Part shown: positions 943 to 58,361 of the stretch, one piece after another | How positions within the stretch are numbered: position 1 is the first letter of the stretch | How the letters are laid out: each line of letters begins with the position of its first letter | From: Vicinamibacterales bacterium | Lineage (GTDB): Bacteria > Acidobacteriota > Vicinamibacteria > Vicinamibacterales > CAVVIG01 | NCBI GenBank assembly: GCA_965197865.1 | Contig: CBDANZ010000005.1 | Location: 247,793-311,792, forward strand | Direction: 5' to 3' | DNA length: 64,000 nt | Position numbers and translations under genes: made by a program | Notes under the pieces: generated by a model | Databases searched by the model: none | What the model saw: only the letters and a program-made list of their open reading frames with translations | Told to the model about the DNA's origin: nothing

Positions 943-2601
943 ATGCGTCTTTTCGAGCCTCTGCCGCATTTTGTCGACGACCTTCTCGGGTACCTCCACG
1001 AGACGCACGCCACGTATGCAACGCTCGACGGCGTTCATACGTATGACGACCTGATCGAGGATCTCAGCCGATCGGCCATCGAGGGCCAGGCGCATGCGCT
1101 CGCCGGCTACCTGCGACGGCTCAACGAAATCCCTGCAGAGAGGCTGACCGAGGTCGAAGGGCTCGAGCACCGCATGCTCGCCAGCCACGTCCGCGCCAGG
1201 ATGTTTGAGCTCGAAGAGGTCCGCACGTGGGAGAAGAGCCCGCAGTACTACGCCGACATCATCGCGTCGAGCGTTGCCGGGCAGACGCTCTTCACGTATG
1301 CGCCGGCCCCCGAGCGCGCGCGCCGCGTGCTGTCCAAGCTACGGCAGACGTCGAGGCTTATTCAGGCGGCGCGCGATAATGTCAGGGATCCGCCAGGCAT
1401 CTTCGTCAAGGTCGGCATCGAGACGTTTCGCGGCACGCTGAAGTTCATCGAGCAGGATCTGCCGCGCGCGTTCTCCAGGCTCGACGATCAGCACCTGCTC
1501 GGCGATCTGGCGGACGCGCAGGCGGAAGCGTCACAGGCCATTGGCGCTTACCTCGAGCACCTCGAGAACGAGGTCGCGCCACGGGCCCGTGCGTCGTTCC
1601 GCATCGGACGGGAGAAGTTCGAGCAGAAAGTGAAGCTCGATGAAGGGCTCTCGCTGCCGATGGATCGGCTCCTCGCCATCGCTACGCGCGAGCTGAAGAC
1701 GACGCAGGAGGCCTTTAGGAGCGCCGCCGGGCGCATGAACGGCGGCGACCCGCTCGAGACGTGGGCGCGGACCAAGGCCGAGCATCCGGCGCCGGGTGAG
1801 CTGGTGGCGGTCGGACGGCAGCAGCTCGACGAGCTGCGGACGTACCTGGAGCGTCAGTCGATCGTCACTCTGCCGGCAGGCGAACCGATTACGGTAGCGC
1901 CGACGCCCGATTTCTACCGCTGGTCGTTTGCGAGCATGTGGACGCCGGGCCCCCTCGAGAGCAAGCCGACCGGCGCGTACTACTATCTAACCGATGTCGA
2001 TCCAAGGTGGCCGGCCGAGCGCCAGCAGGAACACCTGCGCGATTACAACTACCCGACGCTGTGGTCGATCTCCATCCACGAGGTGTATCCCGGTCACTTT
2101 CTCCACTATCAGCACCTCCGGCGGGTAGAGTCGAAGGTGCGGAGGTCGATCATGTTCGCGCCTTCGTCGTTTGTCGAAGGCTGGGCGCACTACTGCGAGC
2201 AGATGATGATCGAAGCGGGCTTCGGCAGGGAAGATCACGCCGTCAAGCTCGGTCAGCTCGCGGAGTCGCTCACCCGGTTGATGCGGGTTATCGTCGGCAT
2301 CAGGCTCCACACCGAGGATCTCTCGGTCGAGCAGGGCGTGCGCCTTTTCCGCGACGAGGCCTACATGGAGGAAGCGAGCGCGCGCCGCGAGGCCGAGCGA
2401 GGCACCTTCGATCCGACCTACCTCGTGTACACCGTCGGGAAGCTGATGCTGCTCAAGCTGCGGCAGGACTGCAAGCAGCGGCAGGGGAGATCGTTCTCGC
2501 TCAGGACGTTCCACGATACGCTACTCGCCCAGGGGACCGCCCCGCTCTGGCTGCACCGGCACCTGATGCTTGGCGCCGGCAGCGGGGACGTGTTGGAATA
2601 G
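943..2601 (+). CDS. DUF885 family protein
   Basis: 552-aa ORF with the DUF885-type HExxPGH signature (SISIHEVYPGHFLHYQH). Length typical of the family. Confidence 0.85.
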   Translation: MRLFEPLPHFVDDLLGYLHETHATYATLDGVHTYDDLIEDLSRSAIEGQAHALAGYLRRLNEIPAERLTEVEGLEHRMLASHVRARMFELEEVRTWEKSPQYYADIIASSVAGQTLFTYAPAPERARRVLSKLRQTSRLIQAARDNVRDPPGIFVKVGIETFRGTLKFIEQDLPRAFSRLDDQHLLGDLADAQAEASQAIGAYLEHLENEVAPRARASFRIGREKFEQKVKLDEGLSLPMDRLLAIATRELKTTQEAFRSAAGRMNGGDPLETWARTKAEHPAPGELVAVGRQQLDELRTYLERQSIVTLPAGEPITVAPTPDFYRWSFASMWTPGPLESKPTGAYYYLTDVDPRWPAERQQEHLRDYNYPTLWSISIHEVYPGHFLHYQHLRRVESKVRRSIMFAPSSFVEGWAHYCEQMMIEAGFGREDHAVKLGQLAESLTRLMRVIVGIRLHTEDLSVEQGVRLFRDEAYMEEASARREAERGTFDPTYLVYTVGKLMLLKLRQDCKQRQGRSFSLRTFHDTLLAQGTAPLWLHRHLMLGAGSGDVLE

Positions 2602-2616
2602 CTGAGAGTTGGAGAG

Positions 2617-2961
2617 ATGCCTCTTTACGAGTACGAGTGCGACGTCTGCGGAGATCGCTTCGAGACGATCCAGAAATTTTCCGACCGATCGCCCCAGAGC
2701 TGCCCGAAATGCGGAGGCGTCGTGCACAAGCTTCAGTCCGCGCCGGCGATTCAGTTCAAGGGCAGCGGGTGGTACGTCACCGATTACGCGAAGAAAGATC
2801 GGGGCTCGTCGGAGAAGACCGGCGAGGGCACCAAAGACACGGCGGCGGGCGGGACCGAGACGACCGGAAAGGCCGACAAGACGGACAAGACGGACAAGAC
2901 CGACAAGACCGACAAGAGCCCCACTGCGGACGCTAAAGGGTCAACAAAGTCGGACGTCTAG
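2617..2961 (+). CDS. FmdB-family zinc-ribbon protein with low-complexity tail
   Basis: MPLYEYECDVCGDRFE..CPKCGG (CxxC..CxxC), GSGWY motif, C-terminal DKT repeats. Confidence 0.85.
   Translation: MPLYEYECDVCGDRFETIQKFSDRSPQSCPKCGGVVHKLQSAPAIQFKGSGWYVTDYAKKDRGSSEKTGEGTKDTAAGGTETTGKADKTDKTDKTDKTDKSPTADAKGSTKSDV
2875..2916 (+). repeat. 9-bp coding tandem repeat GACAAGACS x ~4.7 (DKTDKTDKTDKTDK)
   Basis: Read directly: gacaag acg gacaag acg gacaag acc gacaag acc gacaag, inside the FmdB-like CDS. Confidence 0.9.
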
Positions 2962-2969
2962 AGTTACCC

Positions 2970-3920
2970 CTATCTCTTCCCGGCGGGAACCTGTAGCTCC
3001 AGGGATGAGAGGTAGGCGGAGAACGGTTCCGCGAGGTCGGGCCGCCGCAGCGCGAAGTACACCACCGCTCTGAGGAAGCCGAGCTTGTTGCCGGTGTCGT
3101 GACGGACGCCTTTGATCTCGCACGCAAAGATCGGTCGCTTTCTTAGCAGCTCGCGCAGCCCGTTGGTGAGCTCAATTTCGCCGGTCGGGTCGCTCTTCGT
3201 TGACGCGAGCGCCGGAAAGATGTCGGGTGTAAGAATGTAGCGACCGATGATGGCGAGATCCGACGGCGCTTCATGCTTCGGCGGCTTCTCCACCAGATCG
3301 CGCACCTGATAGATGCCGTCGCCGAGGCTCGCCGAGCCGTCGGGCGCAATGACGCCGTAGCTCGAGATGTCGTCGCGCGGCACACGTTCAACCGCCAGGA
3401 CAGGGCCGCCCACGCGCTCGAAGACGTCGATCATCTGCTTGAGCGCCGGCGGATCGGCGTCGATCACGTCGTCTGCCAGGATGACGGCAAACGGCTCGGG
3501 CCCGACCAGCTCTCGCGCGACGAGCACGGCGTGGCCGAGGCCAAGCGGCTTGCCCTGCCGCACGTAGCCGAAATTGATCAGGTTCGAGATCTTCCGCACC
3601 TCATCGAGCTGCTCGCGCTTGCCTCTCGCTTCGAGAAAGGTCTCGAGCTCGACGAAGACGTCGAAGTGATCTTCGATGGCGTACTTTCCGCGACCGGTCA
3701 CGAGAATGATGTTGTCCACGCCGGAGGCGACCGCTTCCTCGACGCCGTACTGAATAATCGGCTTGTCGACGAGCGGCAACATCTCCTTGGGCTGGGCCTT
3801 GGTGGCCGGAAGGAATCGCGTGCCGAGACCTGCGGCTGGGAAAACGGCCTTGCGGACGAGGGATCTCACCTCGGAATCGTAGCAGAGGGTGGGGGCCGTC
3901 GGCGAATATACAATGCTCAT
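2970..3920 (-). CDS. galU: UTP--glucose-1-phosphate uridylyltransferase
   Basis: [40 protein letters not shown], ..LVEKPP.. motifs. 316 aa. Confidence 0.9.
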
Positions 3921-7887: not shown

Positions 7888-10176
7888 CTACCGAGGCTCA
7901 CCGTTGTACGGATGCTCCCGCGTCTCCCCCGCGAACATGATGAGACGGTCATCCGGATCGCTGACCCGCGTGATGCGCACGCGTGTAGCCGCCCAGGCTA
8001 GCGCACCCGTTTCGGCTTCGGCGAGCGGCGCGACTATGCCGATCGGATTCGCGCCCCGGCCGCTCGCGTACCTTGTGAACGTCTGGTGCCCCTGCCCGAC
8101 CGGCATGGCGACCATGTCGGGCGCCAGGCCGGGCGAGAGAATCGCCGCCGCCTGCACCGCGCCATGACCCGACGCGATCTCCACTACGTCGCGCTCGCGA
8201 ATTCCCAGACGCTCGGCAGTGGCCGGATTGATCTCGACCCAGCTGCTCCACATCGCCGACACGAGCGGATCGGGCAGTTCCTGCAGCCAGGGTAGATGTG
8301 CCAGCGACCCGTCCAGGAATGCGTTCGACGCGTACGGCAGGAAATGAAACGGATACTGCTGCCCTTCGCCGTCGAACTGCGGTTCGGCGAAGGCAAACGT
8401 GCGGGCCGACGCCTTCTCCCCGGTCGATGAAGCTGTTCCAATGCCCTCTGGCAGCTCGCCCCACCAACCGCCCCGTTTTCGTGCGGCCGCCCACGGATCA
8501 CCGCCCGCTTCTTCCGGCGGCAGGGACGCGAACGCCGCGTTCAGCATGTCCTCGAAGGTCGGCCACGGAAGCTCGAGCGGACGACCCAGACGCCGCGCGA
8601 TTTCGAGGAGAACGTCGGGTATGGCGCGCGTCTGGTGAAGCGGGAGCATGGCCGGAGGCGCGACACTCGCCACTGCGATGGTAGCGCCCGACTCGGGCAC
8701 CCGGTCGATCCATGATTCGAGGAACGAATGGTCGGGCAGAATCAGATCGGCCAGAACGCTGGTCTCGTCCAGAAAGCTTCCGAAGCTGGCGATGAACGGA
8801 ACCTTCTCAACTGCCTCGCGCACCCTCCAGGCTGGCGGCGTTGCAAAGACCGGATTCGCGTCATCGATCAGCAGCACCTGGACCGACGAAGGACCGGTCG
8901 CCAGAATGATCGAGGCCAGCTCGGCAATCGAATGCGGCTGGGGAGCGGCCGTTCGCGCCTGCTGACTGCCGCCCGTCGCCTGCAGACTGAGCTGCGGCGT
9001 GAAGAAGACGCCTCCCGGCTCTCCGACACCGCCGACGAGCGCGTTGAGCGCGTTGACGGCAAGGGCGCTGAACAGGCCGTTGGTGTGCGCAAGCGGAGGC
9101 CCGCCGATGATGGCGACAGCGGGACCAAACTCGGCGAACTCGCGCGCGAGCCGCTCGACTCGGCTAGCTGCGACACCCGTCAGCTTCTCGACACGATCGG
9201 GCGCGTAGTTGGTGAGACCGGCCGACCATCCCTCGATGAGCGCGCCGGCGCGAGAGGCGGCGGCGCCCCTGTCCGCTGGCCGCAGCCTGTCCCTGATAAT
9301 GACGTGAGCGAGCCCGAGAGCCAGCACGCCTTCGGTACCCGGACGGACCGGCACCCAGTGGTCGGCGTTCGCGCCCGTTTGCGTCATTCGCGCTTCGACC
9401 TGTACGAGCGCCCCGCGCACGCCCGGCCGGCCCTGCCGCATCCGGCCGTAGGCGGCGCTCTGCGCCACCGGGGAATTCCACGTGCCAAGAAAATCGGCGC
9501 CGAAACTGATCACGTACCGCGCGTTCGCGAGATCGAAAGTCGGCAACTGTGCGCGTCCGAAGCTCAGGTCGTTGGCGCGGCGCAGGACCTCCTCGTCGAA
9601 GAGCTCAAAGGCGACCGGGCCAGGGGCGCCGAACCGCGCAAGAAACTGCTCGACCAGCGCGCGCCGCTGGCCGGTGACCGGCCGCATCACGAGGGCCAAC
9701 GCTTGCTGATCGCCTGCCGTTTCGAGCCCGTCGAGATGCGACAGGAGTTCTGTGAGGGCCTCTTCCCAGCTCACTTCCTCGAAACGGCCGTTGCCACGCG
9801 AGCCGGATCGCTTCAACGGATGTCGGATGCGGTCTGGATGATAGGTAACCTGAATGCCCGCCTGGCCGCGCGCGCACAGTCCGCCCTGGCTGATCGGATG
9901 CGTGAGGCTTCCTTCGAGCTTCTTGGCCACGCCCATTCGAACCAGCCCGGGCTGTCCGTTGCGGACCACCTCGGCGTCCGCCTCCATGACGCGTACGCTC
10001 AAGCCGCACCCGCTGCGGCAAAGTGGGCAGACGCTTGGCTTCCACTGTGCAACACCCGGCACCAGCTCCTCTTCAGGGATGAAGCGAATCAGCTGATGTT
10101 CGAGGGTGTCACAGCTCGCCGCCGAGGCTCCTGCGCCTGCAATCGCGGTGAGCTTGATGAAGGAGCGGCGGTCCAT
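7888..10176 (-). CDS. TAT-exported molybdopterin oxidoreductase catalytic subunit (PsrA/ActB1-like)
   Basis: MDRRSFIKLTAIAGAGASAASC twin-arginine signal. N-terminal CPLCRSGCG..C FS0-type cluster motif. 762 aa. Confidence 0.9.
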   Translation of the reverse strand: MDRRSFIKLTAIAGAGASAASCDTLEHQLIRFIPEEELVPGVAQWKPSVCPLCRSGCGLSVRVMEADAEVVRNGQPGLVRMGVAKKLEGSLTHPISQGGLCARGQAGIQVTYHPDRIRHPLKRSGSRGNGRFEEVSWEEALTELLSHLDGLETAGDQQALALVMRPVTGQRRALVEQFLARFGAPGPVAFELFDEEVLRRANDLSFGRAQLPTFDLANARYVISFGADFLGTWNSPVAQSAAYGRMRQGRPGVRGALVQVEARMTQTGANADHWVPVRPGTEGVLALGLAHVIIRDRLRPADRGAAASRAGALIEGWSAGLTNYAPDRVEKLTGVAASRVERLAREFAEFGPAVAIIGGPPLAHTNGLFSALAVNALNALVGGVGEPGGVFFTPQLSLQATGGSQQARTAAPQPHSIAELASIILATGPSSVQVLLIDDANPVFATPPAWRVREAVEKVPFIASFGSFLDETSVLADLILPDHSFLESWIDRVPESGATIAVASVAPPAMLPLHQTRAIPDVLLEIARRLGRPLELPWPTFEDMLNAAFASLPPEEAGGDPWAAARKRGGWWGELPEGIGTASSTGEKASARTFAFAEPQFDGEGQQYPFHFLPYASNAFLDGSLAHLPWLQELPDPLVSAMWSSWVEINPATAERLGIRERDVVEIASGHGAVQAAAILSPGLAPDMVAMPVGQGHQTFTRYASGRGANPIGIVAPLAEAETGALAWAATRVRITRVSDPDDRLIMFAGETREHPYNGEPR

Positions 10177-10987: not shown

Positions 10988-11406
10988 CGATGTTGTTCTG
11001 GCGATGGACACGACGAGGGAGTTCTTTCCCTGTCGGTCTCGACTCTCCCTTGGAGGACAGCCCCGTCGGCCATGGCGAAACGATACGCGAAGACGTCACC
11101 TTCCACAAATCCCGTCGCTCGGAGGTCGAGCTTTTCCCTTGCCGTGACGTTTCCGAGCACGGTGCCGTCAATCGTGATCGTTCTTGCGACGAGGTCGGCT
11201 TTGATCGTCGCGTCAGCCCCGATGGTCAAACCGTGGTCGCCGACCTCGATCGTTCCCTCGAGCTTACCGTCGATGGTGAGATCGCCGGAACAGACAACGT
11301 CACCTCTCACGAAAACAGACTTGCCAATGCACGCCGCTAGACGCCGCTCATCAAGCGCTGGCTTCACCTGTGCTTGTGTCCTCTCCCGCTCGGAGCCATT
11401 CAACAT
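10981..11406 (-). CDS. bactofilin (polymer-forming cytoskeletal protein)
   Basis: Beta-helical repeat GDVVCSGDLTIDGKLEGTIEVGDHGLTIGADATIKADLVARTITIDGTVLGNVTAREKLDL. ATG 11406 has a GGAGAG SD. The ORF is open up to 11490. Confidence 0.85.
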   Translation of the reverse strand: MLNGSERERTQAQVKPALDERRLAACIGKSVFVRGDVVCSGDLTIDGKLEGTIEVGDHGLTIGADATIKADLVARTITIDGTVLGNVTAREKLDLRATGFVEGDVFAYRFAMADGAVLQGRVETDRERTPSSCPSPEQHRQ

Positions 11407-48668: not shown

Positions 48669-48838
48669 TATCCGATCCTGCCCGGTGGGCAGATGACGAC
48701 CTCTGCTCGCATCCCTCCCTTCGCGCTGAGGCATTTCCAGCTTTCCACACAGACTCCCGCCCGCTTGTGGCCCCCATCAGACGCGCCAAGGAACCCTGCA
48801 CAGGGAACCTTCCGTGTCTATAATCAGCGCCACCACCC

Positions 48839-50488
48839 GTGGTCCCCTGGCACGCCATTGACTCCGCGTCCACGACTCGCCGCGTGGTTCTGCTTTTCGC
48901 GGTCATCGGCCTCGGTTTCGGGGCGCGGGCGGCGACTTACAAGAGCCCCCTGCTCGATTACCATGCCTGGCGCCAGGCGGACACCGCAGCGATCGCCAGA
49001 AACTTCTACCGGGAACGTTTCAACCCGCTCTATCCTCAGATCGACCATAGCAGTCCGTGGTGAAAGTCCGTCTGCATTCGACGAGCGATGCATCCTCGTG
49101 GCCTGCGTTGCTCCTCCATCAAATACAGGCGGTATTCTCGGTCGTCGCGCCTTGCCCGCGAGGCGCCTCGCTCGTCTCGGTGCAGCGCCCGACTTTCACC
49201 ACGGACTGATAGGGGGGCGCTCGACGAGGGCTTCGTGGAAACGGGTTTCGAGCTGTTTGCCTTCTCCGTGGCCGCCATCTCTAGGCTCACCGGCGCCTTC
49301 CGTGTCGAATCGGGCCGGTTACTGAACTCGCTGCTCTTTATCGGATCATCGCTTCTGCTCTTCCGGTTCAGTCGTACACGGTACGGACCCTCGGTCGGCA
49401 TGGTCGCCCTTGCAGCGTATGCACTTGGGTTTCCGCTCTCCCTGTACATCGAGCGGAGCTTCGTGAACGAAGCCTCGTTGATCTTGATCACGTTTGTAGC
49501 GCTGCGCTCGGCCCAGTGTTACTTGGCGGATCACAGGGGCGGGCATTTGGCGGTCCTCGTCGTGTCGACGACTCTGATCGGGCTCATCAAGCTTCCCTGG
49601 CTCATCGTGTGGGCACCACTCTTCGGACTGCTTCTCGAAAGGGACGGCGCGCGCGCGTTGAGGCGGTGGGAGCCGTATGCGCTAGCCGCCGTTAACCTGG
49701 TCGGCGCCTGGTTCTGGTACTCCCACGCGCGTGAGCTCGGTCTGGCCACCGGTCTCAGCTTCGGCATGACTGACAAGCTGTTCGATGCCCAGCTCGTCGG
49801 GTCCCTGATGTTCCCGTTCCGCATCGCGGAACGGTTGACGAAAGACATCCTTGGCCCGGTCGGCATCCTGGCCGTCTGTGTGGGCCTTGTTGTGGCGTGG
49901 CGCTGCCGCGGCTGGTGCGAGGTGCTGGGGATGTGCGGGTTTGGCGCCTACCTAGTCATCGTCGCGAAGGGGAACGACGTACACGATTACTATCAGCTCC
50001 CCATCGTGCCCGTTGCCGCCGTCCTCGTCGGTTTGGGCGTAGTCAGTGCAATTCAGTGGCTCGGGGCGCGAAAGTACGTCGTCACCGACGATGGCCGACT
50101 GTGTGCCTACGCCGTCGTGATAGGCGTAATGCTCTTCAGCACGTGGCTCTGAGGAGTGAGCGCCCATTCGTGGTACGAGTACGACTGGCAGAAGCTCCAC
50201 TTGTGCGCGGCGGCCGAACGAGTGCTGAAAGACGACGACCGTGTGCTGTTCCTCGGTTACAACAACCCGGAGTTGCTGTTCTGCATGGACCGGCGGGGTT
50301 GGCTCTACGACGAGTCTCCTTCCAACGATAAGCAGCTGACAGAAGCCTGGAGAGTAGGGGCCGACGTGGCGGCGCTTCCCGCATCCTACACATTCGCGGA
50401 GGTTGCGAGGCGGATTCGTGAGAACGGGGAGGTCCTCGTTGCCAACGATGCCTTCAGCCTCTATCGGCTTCAACCGTTTCCAGAATAA
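48839..50488 (+). pseudogene. ArnT/PMT-like (GT39/GT83-type) membrane glycosyltransferase, split by MITE and carrying an in-frame TGA
   Basis: GTG 48839 ..LLDYHAWRQADTAAIARNFYRERFNPLYPQIDH | MITE | RGALDEGFVETGFELFAFSV.., multi-TM body. TGA 50150-50152 is followed in the same frame by 110 codons (..SAHSWYEYDW..MDRRGWLYDE..). Confidence 0.65.
49051..49208. mobile_element. 158-bp MITE (copy 2), ATAG target duplication
   Basis: Perfect 18-bp terminal inverted repeat CAGTCCGTGGTGAAAGTC / GACTTTCACCACGGACTG. ATAG at 49047-49050 and 49209-49212. Internal GC-rich stems (GACGAGCGA..TCGCTCGTC; GCGCCT..AGGCGC). Confidence 0.85.
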
Positions 50489-50543
50489 TCCTTCGTGGCT
50501 AGTCCAACGCCCTTGGTCAGCGGAGGGCCTTCCGTGCTCATGA

Positions 50544-50711
50544 TCAGCGCCACCACTCATGGGCATGTACGTGAATCTGCCGTGCAGCCGCGCTTCTCCG
50601 GTGGTCGCATCGTGCCGGCTTTCGATAGAAGAACGTAATAAGCTGTATCGCAAGGCCCGCGGCCACCAGCCATGCAGCTTTCTTGATTCTCTCCTCGAAA
50701 CTCTTGCCCAC
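50544..50711 (-). CDS. hypothetical single-TM small protein (55 aa)
   Basis: GTG 50709-50711 shares one base with the cytochrome TAG stop. VGKSFEERIKKAAWLVAAGLAIQLITFFYRK.. with a His-containing tail. Confidence 0.25.
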   Translation of the reverse strand: MGKSFEERIKKAAWLVAAGLAIQLITFFYRKPARCDHRRSAAARQIHVHAHEWWR

Positions 50712-51752: not shown

Positions 51753-53843
51753 TTACGGTCCGGATGAGCGTTTGCCAATCAGGTTTCGCTCGGCCCCCTC
51801 GACGATCCGCTTCACGTCCTCCTCGAGTAGCAGCCGATCCTCTAACAAACGACTCGCCGCCTCCTTCACCTTTTCCACGTAAGCTTCCTGGTTCCGATAG
51901 CGCTCTTCGATGGACAGGCGAGGATCTCCCGAAGCCTCGCGTTCGGCTCGAGTCTCCGCAAAGGGGATATAGGATCCGGTATTCGAGCAGAGCTCCCCCT
52001 CCGCGGATCCCTCCCGACGGTGATTCCAGCCCAGGTACGTCGCTCGCGGCACCTCCACGGCCGGCATCCGGATGCCGGCCACGTCGTTTCCATCCGCATC
52101 GACCTTTGGAACGAAGACTCGGTACTCCTTTCCTTCCTTGGGAGGCTGTACGCTGTAGTCCGTCACCCGCAGCCGGTTTACGCGTCCGTTGTAAGTGAGT
52201 TTCGGAATCGAAGGAAAGTTCCTACTCCCTGGTTCGGGCGTGACAAGCGTGCCCTCGGCGCGCGATGGAAAGCGGCTGTCGGCAGGCTCAACACCTGCAC
52301 TCACCCAGCGGTCCAACGCATGGAGCAGCGCCCGCATCGGCGCTCCCGCATGCAGTGGGTTGCTTAGCTGCTGACAGTTGCGAGTCGGTCGTGGAACCGC
52401 GTCAATCAAGTTCCCGTGGGGTGCGCTTGCGATGAGGTAGGCGCGCACATTCGCAGGAAGCTCGATGTCGGCGCCGGTAGTGTCAGTGACCACCAGCGAC
52501 GAACGCGCCTGCCAGAACTCGGTGCCCGTATCGGTGTGCAAGACCTTCGGGCAGTTGTCTGCTTCCAGACATCGAGCCAGGATCCCGTCTCGTTTTCCCG
52601 TGAGAGGGTCGGTCAACACGCCGTAGGTAAAGGGGAACTGATCGCCGGGCGTTAGGTGCGTCTGGTGCTGTCCGGAATAGCGGCCTGGCTGGGCCCAACG
52701 GTAGTTCGTAAACATCTTCCGTGAGCCGGCCACGTGAGGGATGATTCCCTCAAAGACCATCCGCTCTTGTTCGTCTTCGTTGAATCCCTGATAGAGAAAG
52801 TCTCGAAGAAAGCGTCCACTCTGGGACCTCCCGAAGGCATACGCGTACCGGATGGCCGGACTGCCATTTAGTGCAAGCGGATTGGGATTCCCCAGCGGGT
52901 CGGATTTTTCCCGCCGCAGGAAGGAGACCACGTCCCGGGTCGAGGCAAAGGCGAGGCCCATCACGACCGGATCGCGGGCGGGATAAGTGAACTCATAGAT
53001 GGCACCGCTGTCGAAACCGACCGGACGGTGAATCACGATCTGGTTCGGACTGGTCGCCGTCACTCCGGCTCGGGCGACGACGAAATACTCGAAGGACAGA
53101 TCGGAGGGAGTCACCCGCGGATCGCGTTCGTTCTGCCGTACGGTGAGGGTCGCCTTCGTGGGGTCGAGGTCCGCGGCCGGATAGCTCAAGTTGGCGACGA
53201 AGGGATTGTAGTCGTGCTCGAAGATGAACTCGTCCCGGTTCGTTCCGGTAACACCTCTCAGAATGGGCACCTCGAGCGTCATCCGCTCTTGGCTGGGCGG
53301 AACGTCCCCCTGCCAGCCCGACCAGACTACCGTGTACCCTTCGCGCATCAGATACCCGTTTCCAGCGTCGGCCGCGGCGGTGAGATCATTACCTCGTGGC
53401 GCGTCGTTGAAGAACCCCAAGCTGAGTTTTCTCCCCCGGTTGACGACCTCATAGAAGATCCGGCCGTTACCCTGTGCTAGATGGACGGGCTTCAAGATCA
53501 CGACGTCGGTCACGAACTCGACCCGTTCCGCGGCATTCCGTGGCACCAGCTGCAGATCGACAACACCGGCATTATGCTGGTCAGTGGGATCGACCTCGAG
53601 GAAAGCCCGAGCCACGACCTTTTCGTATCGGCCGACGCTGCCGAACTCTCTTCCCTCGAAGGTCGGTGACTCGACCTCGAGGACCTCGAAACGGACGACC
53701 TCGGCCTCGGCGTAGACCGAGAATAGGAAAAAGAGGACCACGATGAGGGTCGCGCGCAGGAAGCGCAAGCGACCCGGTCTAACGTGCCATTGGTTCGTCA
53801 CTGCTCTTCTCCTCCGCGAGGGGTCTAAATTATCTACCTTCAC
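51753..53843 (-). CDS. secreted/anchored hypothetical protein (696 aa), alpha/beta-hydrolase-domain-like
   Basis: N-terminal anchor LRATLIVVLFFLFSVYAEA. Long uninterrupted ORF with coding-like composition. Resemblance to the 'alpha/beta hydrolase domain' family is from memory only. Confidence 0.6.
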   Translation of the reverse strand: MKVDNLDPSRRRRAVTNQWHVRPGRLRFLRATLIVVLFFLFSVYAEAEVVRFEVLEVESPTFEGREFGSVGRYEKVVARAFLEVDPTDQHNAGVVDLQLVPRNAAERVEFVTDVVILKPVHLAQGNGRIFYEVVNRGRKLSLGFFNDAPRGNDLTAAADAGNGYLMREGYTVVWSGWQGDVPPSQERMTLEVPILRGVTGTNRDEFIFEHDYNPFVANLSYPAADLDPTKATLTVRQNERDPRVTPSDLSFEYFVVARAGVTATSPNQIVIHRPVGFDSGAIYEFTYPARDPVVMGLAFASTRDVVSFLRREKSDPLGNPNPLALNGSPAIRYAYAFGRSQSGRFLRDFLYQGFNEDEQERMVFEGIIPHVAGSRKMFTNYRWAQPGRYSGQHQTHLTPGDQFPFTYGVLTDPLTGKRDGILARCLEADNCPKVLHTDTGTEFWQARSSLVVTDTTGADIELPANVRAYLIASAPHGNLIDAVPRPTRNCQQLSNPLHAGAPMRALLHALDRWVSAGVEPADSRFPSRAEGTLVTPEPGSRNFPSIPKLTYNGRVNRLRVTDYSVQPPKEGKEYRVFVPKVDADGNDVAGIRMPAVEVPRATYLGWNHRREGSAEGELCSNTGSYIPFAETRAEREASGDPRLSIEERYRNQEAYVEKVKEAASRLLEDRLLLEEDVKRIVEGAERNLIGKRSSGP

Positions 53844-54365
53844 TGCTACATGCGCGGGCGGGACATTGCGGCGCTCAGCTTGACCACCCCGCCTTGGGTC
53901 TGGCGAAGTAATGCCTCACCGTGCTGACAAGTTCCTCGGACACTGGCGACCTCCCCCTGACGACTGGGAAGCGTCACGCGACACGTGAGTCCACGCTGCC
54001 TATGCATAGGGCCGAGGCGAGTGCCGGGGGAAAGGGCCATGGGTCGTGAATGCCCGGATTATACGGCTGGGTGCCGAGAAAAGGCGGCTTCGAAGGCAGG
54101 GGTTCTTAGGGGTGCTGGAAATTCGCCTTGGGCCCGATCTGTTGGGGGAAGCCTTGCATGCGCCGCCTCCCGAATCGCTCGTGTCGCTTTGCTGGTCGCC
54201 CCACGGCGTAGCCTCAGGGTTCCCCTTGACGAATTGCCCCTTGGCGTTCTTGGCACATTTGGCCATATGCGCCGCAAAACCTCCGTCAATTACGGGATGC
54301 CCTCTAGGCAGGTTAGGGCGGCAGGAGCTACCGATTCAAAAAAGGCAGCCGGTCCCGACCGCAGT

Positions 54366-55176
54366 CTACGTCTCGTTCTCCCCGAGCTTGGTCCGGGCGT
54401 CGTTCAGCATCGCGACGAGGGCGGCCCGGGCCTCCTCCGGGGTGCGGACCGGTGCAGGAAACGCCAGACGGACGGGTCGCGGTCCTTCGGCGGTCACGGC
54501 CGACACCTCGAAGCCGTAGCGGTCGACACTCGTCATGCTGGCGGCGTTGATGTCGGTTGCCTTCGAGAACGCCTTGCAGTAGAGCGCCATCGCGTCGGTG
54601 TGGTCGTCGTTCATGTGCGCGATGACACCGCCGGCAGCCGTGGCCAGCGGGTCCGGCTCGGCGGCGTGCCAGTCCGCCGCGTCGACCCAGGACATCCGCC
54701 CGTAGCCCCCGATGTAGCGGATCGATTCCACCTTCAGCTTCCAGAACGCGAAGTCGCCGAAGTCCAGGTAATACCCGGCGTTCGGGTGCGTGGCGAGAAA
54801 CGCGGCGCGCGCGCTGCCGCCGTCGCCCTTGACCTGCGCGCAGGGACCAAGCAACGTCACGCGCCCGTTCGCAAGTGGGTCCTCGGAGCCGCCCTCGGCT
54901 ACCAGAAGCGACGCTCGTGGGTCCCGCTGCAGGTTCCCTGGTGTGCTCGGCCATCGTGCTCACTAGAAACACCGGGTTGCCGTCGTCGAAGGCGACGGTC
55001 ACGAACGAGCCGTAGGGGTAGCCCTTCGGCTCGGCCGCCAGCGTGCAGAGGGTGCCGGTCTTGATCTGTGCTACCAGGGTCCGAGCCCGTTCGGCATGGC
55101 TCGGTGTCGGGATATTGACGTCATACAGCGGTCTTGGCGCGTCACCTGACGGCCGGGCGTGGGCATCGTTGGTCAT
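54366..55176 (-). pseudogene. HugZ-like pyridoxamine-5'-phosphate-oxidase-fold / DUF2470 protein, frameshifted
   Basis: ATG 55176 ..PSHAERARTLVAQIKTGTLCTLAAEPKGYPYGSFV..STMAEHTR, one extra base in a GGG/CCC run (54936-54938), then NLQRDPRASLLVAEGGSEDPLANGRVTLLGPCAQV..DFAFWKLKVESIRYIGGYGRMSWV..IAHMNDDH.. Confidence 0.75.
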
Positions 55177-55596
55177 CGGCAGCCTTGAGTGTTGTCGTAG
55201 CGGCAGAGAGTGATGAAGCGGCTGGTCGTCGTCACATGGTAGTGTCCACTCCACATTATTCATCAAACGCGCTTAAGGCGCACAGTGGCTACGCCTGCGA
55301 TTCATACAGAGTCGTACTGATTCAGTTGGGGCCGGTGTTATCGGCCTGTGTAAGGAGTCGTTCTCTTACCACTTCACGTTCGAGACTAATTCTGCCTGCG
55401 GACGTGAATGAACTTGCCTCTCTGACCGTACCAACGGCTGATGGCATAGCGACCGTCTGAACGCGGGTGACGACAGTTGTGTCGTATGTTGTCTTTGTCA
55501 GGTCAAGCGCTACGTAGCGAACATATCGGCGCGGCACGCGGCTCACTTGGCCCGTTAGCCGGACTGAAGTGTCTCGAAGAGTGAGGAAGGGTTCGA

Positions 55597-56250
55597 ATGT
55601 CTCTTCTGAAATCTTCCAGCGTGACGATCCTGTTCTCCATCGTACTTGCGTTCGGCGCATGGCAGGCAGCCTGGGCACAGACGACGGAAGAACGTTGGCG
55701 GGCCTACTTGGCGCGACAAACGGCCTTGCATTGGAGGTCCCCATGGTTGATGTCCATACCAGGCTTGTCGGTAATCGCGACGCCATCGTCGATCTCGTCG
55801 CCGCCGCGGAAAAGTTGGGAGGGGTATGGACAGTAACCCCGAGCGCCAGGAAAATGGTCGCCAAGTCAACTCGTAGAGCATGTCGCGCGTTCTCTTGACG
55901 AATCGGCGAACCTCGTGTCTGGTGCGCCGTCGAAACTTCCAAGCTTGCCGTTTTTTCTGCGACCTGTGGCGAGAGGCCTTTTCTTTAATCGAGTCCTGAG
56001 AAAAAGCGCCTTTCCGAAGACGAGAGCCAACAAAGCGATGGATCCTGCCAGCGGACCGGCCACGCCGGCCGAGGGCCGCCTCCGTCTCGAGGGTGCGCTC
56101 GCAAGGTTCGATCGCGAATGCCGCGCTTGCGTGGACACGGGCGGAGCCGTGGCAAGCGCGGGGTTCGGCACGGTGTCGGTTGGAGACTACGCGCGATTCG
56201 TCGAGCTACACACACGCCATCATTGCAAACAAATACTGGGAACAACGTAA
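55597..56250 (+). pseudogene. DinB-superfamily protein with signal peptide, at least two frameshifts
   Basis: MSLLKSSSVTILFSIVLAFGAWQAAWAQ / ..AIVDLVAAAEKLGGVWTVTPSA / KWSPSQLVEHVARSLDESANLV.. / ..VGDYARFVELHTRHHCKQILG, spread over three frames. One shift lies in an A-run near 55850. Confidence 0.55.
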
Positions 56251-56489
56251 TACCCGGTGGCGAGCCAGCGAACAACCGAATGAGGGTTCGTCGTGACCAA
56301 TTCGATACACCTGTGAGGCATTGTCAAGTTGACGAGAAGAGGGCATGCTGATCCACTTTCTCCGCCAGTTCATTCTGCCTTTCCTCTAAGGTATTGCCGA
56401 CCAACAGCTTCTCGTCCTCGCCCTTCTGTTGATCGTCCGAGTGACACGTTTGAGTGACGCATCGGCCCTGGCGTTTGGGATCAGGCTCG

Positions 56490-57497
56490 TTAACTTGCGA
56501 ACAACCGCGAGGAGGTGCTCGGGAACGCCGTCACGGTGATGACGATTTTTCCTCGAGCGTACCCCTCTTCCAGATAGCGGATCGCCTCGGGGACCTTGCT
56601 CAGCGGGTAGGTCATGTCGATGACCGGTGTGACCTTCCCGGATTCAATGAGCTTCTTCAAGAACCGCAGATCCTCCCTGCTCCGTTCCATCGAGAACAGC
56701 GAGCGGAGCTTCTGGCGCACGAACGGCGACAACATGAGTGCCAGGAGTTGGCGACCCACTCCGAACCACCGTCCGCCCCCTTCTCCTCCGATGATCACGA
56801 GAGTCCCCTGGGGGCTGAGGGCGCGTCTGAGGTGTGACAACGAACGATTGCCCGCCGCGTCGAGGATGACGTCGTAGTGCTGTCGACCATTGGCGAAGTC
56901 CTCCCGGGTGTAATCAATGGCATGGTCAGCGCCGATCGATCGAACCAGGTCCGTCTTCGTTGTGCTGCAGACGCCGGTGACTTCTGCTCCGAACGCCTTG
57001 GCGATCTGCACCGCGAACGTCCCCACGCCTCCTGCCGCACCGATGATCAACACTTTCTGCCCTGACTTCACCTTTCCCGCGTCGCGAAGACCCTCGAGGG
57101 CGGTGACAGCGGAGTCAGGGACGGCCGCCGCCTGCTCGAAGGTGAGGTCTGCCGGCTTCCCCACGAACTTGTCCTCTCGAGCACACGCGTACTCGGCGAA
57201 GGAGCCGTTGCAGGTACCGAATACCTCATCGCCCGGCTGAAATTGGGTCACATTCTTCCCGACCGCCTCGACGCGTCCTGCGACGTCCTCTCCAGCAACC
57301 CTGTTCTTAGGCTTGCGGAGCCCAGAGCCCAGGCGTATCAGGTACGGTAGGTCCGTCATGAGATGCCGCGCCCCAGGACTGACGCCAGCCGCGTGAACAC
57401 GTACCAACACGTCGTGATCCCCGACCCCCGGCTTGTCGATGTCCCTGAGTTTCAGGACGTCTGGTGAGCCGTACGTGTCGTGGACGATTGCTTTCAC
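56490..57497 (-). CDS. NAD(P)-dependent medium-chain dehydrogenase/reductase (quinone oxidoreductase-like)
   Basis: MKAIVHDTYGSPDVLKLRDIDKP..VLVRVHAAGV.., Rossmann GAAGGVGTFAVQIAK. 335 aa. Confidence 0.9.
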   Translation of the reverse strand: MKAIVHDTYGSPDVLKLRDIDKPGVGDHDVLVRVHAAGVSPGARHLMTDLPYLIRLGSGLRKPKNRVAGEDVAGRVEAVGKNVTQFQPGDEVFGTCNGSFAEYACAREDKFVGKPADLTFEQAAAVPDSAVTALEGLRDAGKVKSGQKVLIIGAAGGVGTFAVQIAKAFGAEVTGVCSTTKTDLVRSIGADHAIDYTREDFANGRQHYDVILDAAGNRSLSHLRRALSPQGTLVIIGGEGGGRWFGVGRQLLALMLSPFVRQKLRSLFSMERSREDLRFLKKLIESGKVTPVIDMTYPLSKVPEAIRYLEEGYARGKIVITVTAFPSTSSRLFAS

Positions 57498-57564
57498 GGG
57501 GTTCTCCTGATCTGTCGCGGGGGTGGATATGGTATGCCTTTCGGTGTGTATGTGGAAGCAACCC

Positions 57565-57578
57565 CCAATCTAGATTGG
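57565..57578. promoter_or_regulatory. 14-bp perfect palindrome CCAATCTAGATTGG in divergent intergenic region
   Basis: Read directly. Lies between the divergently oriented reductase (57497) and methyltransferase (57659) genes. Confidence 0.25.
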
Positions 57579-57658
57579 TCGCGATGAGCGCCGTGCTGAT
57601 TGGCGATTCCCCGCGTAAGAGGAAGCTGATGGCATTGTAAAGCGACGCGCCCGGTCTG

Positions 57659-58096
57659 GTGGTTCCTCCCCCGGTCATCTATCTTCCGGCGGTCGTGCTG
57701 GGCTTCCTGACGGACCGGCTCTGGTCCGTCGCGTTCCTCCCGGATGTGCTGCAGTATGTGTTGGGAGGGGCGCTCATCGCGATGAGCCTCGCGATCATGC
57801 CATGGGTCTTGCGCGAGTTCGCCAAAGCGGGGACACACTTCGACGCCCGCAAACTCGTCGTGGCGCTCATCACGGGTGGTCCGTTCCGATTCTCGCGCAA
57901 TCCGTCATACGTCGCGATGACTCTGCTCTGTATGGGTGTCGCGGTCGTCACCGATACGCTGTGGATTCTCTTGTGGCTGGTGCCGGCGGTGCTGATACTT
58001 GATGTTGCCGTCATCCGGCGTGAGGAGCGATTCTTGGACCAGAAATTCGGCGAGGTCTATCGTGACTGCACGCATCGGGTCCGACGATGGCTGTGA
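57659..58096 (+). CDS. isoprenylcysteine carboxyl / phospholipid methyltransferase-family membrane protein
   Basis: ..ITGGPFRFSRNPSYVAMTLLCMG..VIRREERFLDQKFGEVY.. typical ICMT/PEMT core. 145 aa. Confidence 0.75.
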   Translation: MVPPPVIYLPAVVLGFLTDRLWSVAFLPDVLQYVLGGALIAMSLAIMPWVLREFAKAGTHFDARKLVVALITGGPFRFSRNPSYVAMTLLCMGVAVVTDTLWILLWLVPAVLILDVAVIRREERFLDQKFGEVYRDCTHRVRRWL

Positions 58097-58361
58097 AGGG
58101 CCATCCAGCCAGGATGGTCCCGGTCTCTTCCGGCCTAAGGAATTGCGCGTCGACGCAACTTCAACTAAATGCAACGGCGTCAGAAGTAATCTGTCCGACG
58201 ATATCATAGAGACGGCTAGAAGGCCGAGGCGTAGCTCACGATCATCGGCTGACCGTGTACTCCAGAAGAACGATCCCGGACTTCGGGTACACGCGTTCCT
58301 TGCGCAATGCTAGCTTGGTCGGCGAGACTGGCGAGGGAAGCATCTTAACGAGGAGGTTCGG

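Follow-up and report, generated by a model that had tools for sequence, protein, structure and literature searches.

How did a gene for a membrane glycosyltransferase come to be split by a short, hairpin-forming stretch of DNA, and from where did that stretch come? This question is raised by a locus in a Vicinamibacterales bacterium, which we studied in a 64,000-nucleotide piece of its genome (hereafter the window; contig CBDANZ010000005.1, positions 247,793 to 311,792), where a unit of 158 bp interrupts the open reading frame (ORF) of an ArnT/PMT-like protein. The answer that we favour, and to which we assign a probability of about 0.93, is that the unit is a non-autonomous miniature inverted-repeat transposable element (MITE) with both tips resembling one end of an IS1182/IS5-like insertion sequence (IS), that it inserted into a gene for a GT-C glycosyltransferase which already contained a TGA stop codon, and that it was probably moved in trans. 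This is an ordinary transposon insertion of a well-documented sort; the element is of a known kind and was active recently, and the MITE family to which it belongs is apparently undescribed.

Insertion of the 158-bp element

The element occupies positions 49051-49208 on the plus strand. It begins with CAGTCCGTGGTGAAAGTC (49051-49068) and ends with the exact reverse complement of that sequence (49191-49208), giving perfect 18-bp terminal inverted repeats, and it is flanked on both sides by ATAG (49047-49050 and 49209-49212). These features had been reported in a first-pass annotation made from the sequence, and all of them are present at these positions. That annotation had also taken the element for a MITE and the ATAG pair for a target-site duplication, which is borne out by a near-identical strain. 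This strain is represented by a 1.5-Mb ENA contig (L117), found through a neighbouring 232-aa protein that is identical residue for residue, and is 99.5% identical to the window over positions 36447-58833. L117 lacks the element and reads ...GACC ATAG GGGGGC... (ATAG at 11078-11081) where the window carries ATAG-element-ATAG. Its alignment to the window falls into three blocks, and neighbouring blocks overlap at their ends by precisely those tetranucleotides that are duplicated. That a 99.5%-identical relative has just one ATAG and no element here demonstrates an insertion that duplicated 4 bp of the target.

The 158 bp fold into one long hairpin (-86.3 kcal/mol, z = -8.8 relative to dinucleotide shuffles), and the opposite strand folds similarly. 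None of the ORFs crossing the element or starting inside it is a transposase gene; these ORFs are frames through the hairpin or a restart of the glycosyltransferase frame (homologues unchecked). A scan for promoters and terminators found none inside the element, the sole promoter-like site being located upstream of the glycosyltransferase gene, and an Rfam search of the element and its surroundings returned chance-level matches only. The element is thus short and non-coding, has terminal inverted repeats and a target duplication, and is absent from the corresponding site of a relative; in addition, it exists in dispersed copies, and its tips match an autonomous element able to supply transposase. 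All testable defining features of a MITE are therefore present, and the element is one.

The description of the element as "solo" in the first-pass annotation does not hold, as the window contains an almost identical copy (45525-47049) and a related autonomous IS (59945-61425), and dozens of copies exist in other genomes. When up to three mismatches are allowed, the 18-mer of the MITE tip has four matches in the window, compared with 0.07 expected, the further sites being 47032-47049 (exact) and 61408-61425 (one mismatch). A scan of the window with a covariance model of the family (R1) detected copies 1 and 2 and no others, copy 1 scoring 166.8 bits on the plus strand and 49.4 bits on the minus strand. 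Copy 2 lies 2 kb upstream of copy 1, also on the plus strand, and is itself interrupted. Its first 8 nt, CAGTCCGT (45525-45532), follow a CTAG at 45521-45524, and its remainder (46900-47049) is followed by CTAG at 47050-47053. Once the 1,367 bp of a nested IS are removed, 157 of its 158 positions are identical to those of copy 1. Here too L117 has an empty site, with a single CTAG (9081-9084), reading ...CCACG CTAG GCATGCC... where the window carries copy 2 and the nested IS.

The nested IS is an IS110-family element of ~1,367 bp (45533-46899, minus strand) located in the left inverted end of copy 2, and it is absent from L117. Because L117 is empty at both sites, both MITE insertions and the insertion of the IS110-family element into copy 2 occurred within ~0.5% divergence. 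The element has subterminal inverted repeats (45533-45549 and 46877-46893), and its transposase gene is broken by a frameshift (ORFs 46023-46871 and 45785-46414). The domains PF01548 (DEDD_Tnp_IS110) and PF02371 (Transposase_20) both score above their cut-offs, and the two frameshifted halves score 145.2 and 139.8 bits with NCBIfam NF033542, whose cut-off is 140. The IS110-family element targeted the MITE end. In its 3' non-coding part, two short stretches, GTCCGTGG (45613-45620) and CGTGGTG (45671-45677), are identical to the target sequence that spans the insertion point. These are candidate bridge-RNA guides, the 8-mer match having ~0.4 expected by chance by our own estimate. An Rfam search of the IS110 region gave chance-level matches only. 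The IS110 end was carried by none of the other loci listed that have the 18-mer in other genomes (see below), and one instance of this nesting is known here.

The partner insertion sequence and probable mobilisation in trans

The autonomous IS1182/IS5-like IS of the window spans 1,481 bp (59945-61425, minus strand), is flanked by a TTAG duplication (59941-59944 and 61426-61429) and encodes an intact 474-aa DDE transposase. Of its two ends, the one on the upstream side of the transposase (CAGCCCGTGGTGAAAGTC) agrees with the MITE tips at 17 of 18 positions. The transposase has the Pfam domains DUF772 and DDE_Tnp_1, both above cut-offs; its best NCBIfam match is the IS1182 profile NF033551, with 165.6 bits at a cut-off of 270, and the IS5_4 profile gives 82.1 bits at a cut-off of 140. 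The label "IS1182/IS5-like" is used because the protein scores below the curated NCBIfam cut-offs for both families. The lineage is represented in other genomes as well. Among the loci listed, 24 others have the 18-mer directly upstream of a transposase that is 55-77% identical to that of the window, and the limits of 12 more distinct full-length ISs (1,442-1,535 bp) could be defined, L046 carrying its IS twice. These ISs have 4-bp duplications, mostly CTAG, and a similar second end, CAGCCCGTGGyrGAAGT.... Both MITE tips correspond to the transposase-proximal end of this IS lineage, and the target preference is common to MITE and IS. Beside the IS of the window, a short ORF on the plus strand (59818-59925) ends ~20 nt before the element. 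It begins with MRVFVIGLGSMGKRRVRNL, which we take to be a Rossmann-type N-terminus like that of Gfo/Idh/MocA oxidoreductases, and it may be what is left of a further disrupted gene.

The autonomous IS is active in the population, as shown by a third assembly, L128, which differs from the window in its insertion sites despite an identity of 99.8-99.98% over positions 53284-64000: it carries the IS 7 bp to the right of the window site (59941-61436), at TTAA and in the opposite orientation (L128 8120-9620), and it has an extra copy (1965-3500) at a TTAA where the window is empty (55273-55276). Together, the three strains, which are at least 99.5% identical, have five differing insertion sites within 20 kb. 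The MITE and its IS are thus moving now in a natural population. The differences in L128 and the one-nucleotide difference between the two MITE copies support current mobilisation in trans, a step that we infer.

The most likely course of events is the following. A DDE transposase, made in trans from an IS1182/IS5-like IS in the same genome, would bind both tips of the MITE and insert it at a tetranucleotide of the NTAG/YTAR type, duplicating the 4 bp. In the case of copy 1, the MITE landed on the ATAG of ...GAC CAT AGG..., in the part of the GT-C gene that codes for the first loop. As judged from the shared ends and targets, the enzyme in question is probably the transposase of the IS at 59945-61425.

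Several points weigh against this view. The interior of the MITE beyond the terminal 18 bp is without similarity to the IS at 59945-61425 and, because the interiors are unrelated, the MITE is not a simple internal deletion of that IS. The family placement of the partner IS is approximate, being based on profile scores, and the copy count for the source genome has the 64-kb window as its scope. As to the consequences for the gene, a protein truncated at the older TGA, at codon 385, is predicted to keep all its transmembrane helices, and some activity before the MITE arrived is possible.

The unrelated interior, together with the difference between the ends at 1 of 18 positions and the fact that the partner was sought within the 64-kb window, leaves some room for a different mover, the candidates being a further IS located elsewhere in the genome and the IS110-family recombinase inside copy 2. 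We consider this improbable, since the 18-mer is the conserved transposase-proximal end of an IS lineage at the 24 other loci mentioned, the IS and the MITE both make a 4-bp duplication of the CTAG type, and the IS110-family element is inserted into a MITE end and does not flank the MITE. To our knowledge, moreover, IS110-family elements use no inverted ends and make no 4-bp duplications.

It should be noted that the related public assemblies are low-coverage long-read contigs (their names end in 7x or 3x), and that L117 itself likely has a 1-nt indel in the glycosyltransferase gene; it could hence be asked whether the insertion, the TGA or both are artefacts of assembly or sequencing. This is very improbable: both insertions in the window are flanked by exact 4-bp duplications and differ from each other by one nucleotide, duplications flank family members in many independent genomes, and the TGA is found in two independent assemblies.

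The disrupted glycosyltransferase gene

The 5' part of the pseudogene (48839-49050, plus strand) starts with GTG and runs through 70 full codons into codon 71, of which it has the first two bases; the 3' part (49213-50488, plus strand) resumes in frame, completing the invariant Arg71, followed by Gly72. Deletion of 49051-49212 yields a 1,488-nt frame reading ...YPQIDHRGALDEGFVETGFELF..., whose 495-aa product has 179 homologues, nearly all of ~470-500 aa, at 96-98% coverage, the best being 67% identical. The repaired protein is colinear with these homologues (~480 aa) across both lesions. In an alignment of 14 sequences, the junction restores the invariant residues D69, R71 and G72 of the motif YPQ[IV]DxRG, and the column of the TGA codon is a near-invariant Arg. 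The claim that the MITE splits a single coding sequence is thereby upheld.

The nature of the protein was approached by profile and by structure. The window protein scores 19.8 bits with Pfam PMT_2 (PF13231), below the gathering score of 26.1, and this profile matches 29 of 36 homologues at E <= 1e-3. A family profile run against PDB sequences gave only spurious matches to designed proteins. For the 67%-identical orthologue (P0001), the AlphaFold model reaches a pLDDT of 92.8 and, in a Foldseek search, retrieves STT3 (E 1e-10), ArnT (5ezm, TM 0.70), PglB and ALG12, with E values from 1e-10 to 5e-9. Because the model of the orthologue matches GT-C enzymes, the earlier label "ArnT/PMT-like membrane glycosyltransferase" is right at the level of the fold. 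Based on this model, the disrupted gene is predicted to encode a GT-C (ArnT/PMT/STT3-like) membrane glycosyltransferase, with GT39 and GT83 as candidate CAZy families.

The second lesion, an in-frame TGA at 50150-50152 (plus strand), replaces a conserved Arg codon and is one step from CGA or AGA. The presence of this codon in L117 as well shows that the TGA does not stem from a sequencing error and that it arose before the MITE inserted. The gene has thus been hit at least twice, as had been proposed, by two independent lesions whose order can be read from the MITE-less strain. The TGA is followed by an ORF of 110 codons (50156-50488), in which the invariant residues S387, W391, E393, C402, R414, P423, C428, G433 and W434 are all kept. 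It lies directly past the last predicted transmembrane helix, and the earlier truncation cost only the C-terminal soluble domain. The MITE, which struck a gene already impaired by the Arg-to-TGA change, removes everything past the first helix and loop: a TGA within its left inverted end (49061-49063) stands in the glycosyltransferase frame, and the upstream fragment stops after 74 codons. By bringing this TGA into frame, the insertion cuts the product there, and the truncated protein is probably non-functional.

The MITE and the duplication together make 162 bp, a multiple of 3, so that the glycosyltransferase frame is preserved across the insert. This could be taken to mean that the insert and the TGA codons are tolerated, by read-through, by recoding or as an intein- or RPE-like translated insert, and that the gene is functional. 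All the invariant residues past the TGA are indeed kept, and the window and L117 differ in this gene by 5 synonymous and 3 non-synonymous changes. We nevertheless regard tolerance as most unlikely, as 7 of 19 neighbouring genes end in TGA, which thus serves as a normal stop in this genome region, the insert lies between invariant residues of the catalytic first loop, and 0 of 13 aligned homologues have an insert at that place. The case also allows split "hypothetical" ORFs in Vicinamibacterales and other Acidobacteriota to be flagged as one glycosyltransferase pseudogene.

Some further observations concern the same gene. L117 has a 1-nt deletion at ~11308 (window 49439), CTCTCCC -> CTC-CCC, which may be a third, independent lesion or else reflect a mistake in the 7x long-read assembly. 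The promoter-like site mentioned above, TGCACA-16-TATAAT (48797-48824, plus strand), is located 15 nt upstream of the GTG start and is a consensus match only. A 35-nt motif, CCTTCCGTG..AT.ATCAGCGCCACCAC...TGG, occurs twice, at 48808-48842, where it overlaps the promoter-like TATAAT and the GTG start, and at 50524-50560, just past the gene stop. Its 14-nt core, ATCAGCGCCACCAC, has exact matches in the window at these two places only.

The MITE family, its hairpin and comparable elements

When one genome per species was searched for CAGYCCGTGGTGAAAGTC, at least 116 loci were obtained. Those listed, which do not include the genome of the window, are mostly from Acidobacteriota, chiefly Vicinamibacterales, and some are from metagenome-assembled genomes (MAGs) labelled delta proteobacterium, Aminicenantes, Planctomycetota, Methylomirabilia, Gemmatimonadales and Polyangia. 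BLASTN of the 158-bp unit against the 116 loci listed and the window recovered at least 37 full-length copies, 157-161 bp long and 68-90% identical. Among the loci listed, perfect 4-bp duplications flank 22 of the 37 copies (CTAG in 11, CTAA in 3, ATAG, TTAC and TCAA in 2 each, CTGA and TTAA in 1 each), and most of the remaining copies are one base off. Contigs from JGI metagenomes contain further copies with 88-94% identity, again mostly at CTAG, and with the covariance model ~44 hits outside the window, from genomes and metagenomes, score 120 bits or more. The weaker matches of the model are elements with the same ends and other interiors or lengths. In other genomes, the same inverted ends are found on minimal hairpins of ~54-83 bp and on forms of 200-340 bp (L051 3325-3407, L038 6552-6754, L001 111-394, L097 6497-6560, L056 1582-1645 and L075 4633-4686), and five MAGs of Planctomycetota or Polyangia (L063, L073, L094, L101 and L106) have units of ~158 bp with different interiors. 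Because elements with the same ends vary in length and interior, the IS lineage seemingly spawned several MITE families.

Among viral contigs, the 18-mer occurs in 3 and a family copy, as judged by the covariance model, in none, and there is no sign of phage carriage. Judged by whether a long ORF runs across the repaired junction, about one third of the other copies could be intragenic; this ORF test is uninformative, because spurious long ORFs abound at 63-70% G+C. In a large census of prokaryotic MITEs, ~90% were intergenic, and gene inactivation is listed as a known effect (PMC11602168). We found no paper in the literature containing the MITE end sequence, and the family is apparently undescribed. 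The filled and empty sites, the partner IS and the nested insertions can now be used to annotate a repeat that is widespread in Vicinamibacterales and other Acidobacteriota.

The hairpin is a common property of the family. In an alignment of 34 copies, with a mean column identity of 82%, the 18-bp repeats are conserved in all 34, and the consensus structure is one long interrupted hairpin of 44 pairs, with compensatory double changes at 19 of them. The fraction of cells paired is 95.0%, compared with 83.5% in shuffles and 34-45% when the partners are slid by 1-3 columns; for the covariation score the corresponding values are 0.293, 0.105 and 0.04-0.07, and in both cases 0 of 500 shuffles reached the observed value. 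In reading these numbers it should be taken into account that the structure was derived from the same sequences and that copies within subfamilies are not independent. The covarying pairs are located 20-80 nt from the MITE tips, further in than a terminal transposase-binding site would explain. The comparison of the copies thus suggests that the hairpin is under structural constraint. Conserved unpaired motifs (GCGTTGCTCC, TCAAATA, GGTATTCTC and GCGCCTTG) make the MITE asymmetric, as reflected in scores of 167 vs 49 bits for the two strands. On the plus strand there are 50 cells of the G-U type vs 18 of the A-C type, but column pair 24/141 supplies 28 of the 50, and because this pair dominates the excess no conclusion is drawn about the strand of the structure. 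Pair 24/141 of alignment A2 (window 49073/49185) is U-G in 18 copies and G-U in 10, which on the opposite strand is an A-C mismatch, a weak hint that the plus strand is the relevant one.

The very stable fold (z = -8.8) and its preservation by compensatory changes across the family would also suit a resident, non-mobile structured element native to the locus, such as a REP-like repeat, a regulatory RNA or a terminator, but the probability of this is negligible, as it is already refuted by the absence of the element from the 99.5%-identical L117, with its clean single ATAG, and as the insert breaks conserved coding sequence at an invariant motif, has inverted ends that match the end of an IS, is flanked by 4-bp duplications wherever it occurs among dozens of unrelated sites, and matches no Rfam family.

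That the unit is a mobile MITE does not preclude a function for its hairpin. Because the length of 157-161 bp, the hairpin and the unpaired motifs are kept at 68-90% identity across several phyla, the family could carry a selected module of structured RNA or single-stranded DNA and be more than a passive transposase substrate, an idea that we put forward tentatively and hold to be rather doubtful. Such a module might assist the transposition of the element as a cofactor, or it might serve the host at the level of the transcript; if true, this would be a mobile structured-RNA family not yet in Rfam. Since MITEs with long hairpins are already known, the hairpin as such fits an established kind of element, and the structural constraint is the only point that might lead somewhere new.

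How does the locus compare with known systems? The glycosyltransferase resembles ArnT (GT83), PMT (GT39) and STT3/PglB (GT66) in its predicted multi-helix membrane core, conserved acidic first loop and C-terminal soluble domain; unlike the known GT-C families, it is below the PMT_2 cut-off and has no solved structure by sequence profile. The nested element recalls IS4321 and IS5075, members of the IS110/IS1111 family that target the inverted ends of Tn21-family transposons. As in those cases, an IS110-family element occupies a set position within a terminal inverted repeat that belongs to a different mobile element, although here the target is a MITE end and not a Tn3-family end, and a single instance is involved. 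The Correia elements of Neisseria, ERIC and RUP are ~100-160 bp long, have inverted ends, form one long stem-loop when transcribed and use short TA-containing targets. The window MITE shares their size, inverted ends, single long hairpin and TA-containing targets, but it has no sequence relationship to them and its host phylum is Acidobacteriota. Close counterparts are also found in bacterial MITEs that stem from DDE ISs of the IS5/IS1182 type or are mobilised by them. The family differs from these in that both tips of the window MITE resemble one end only of the IS, the transposase-proximal one, with an unrelated interior, and in that it holds a length of 157-161 bp across several phyla. With them it shares its small, non-coding form, perfect inverted repeats that match an autonomous IS of the same genome, a 4-bp duplication of the CTAG/YTAR type, its many copies and the disruption of a gene upon insertion.

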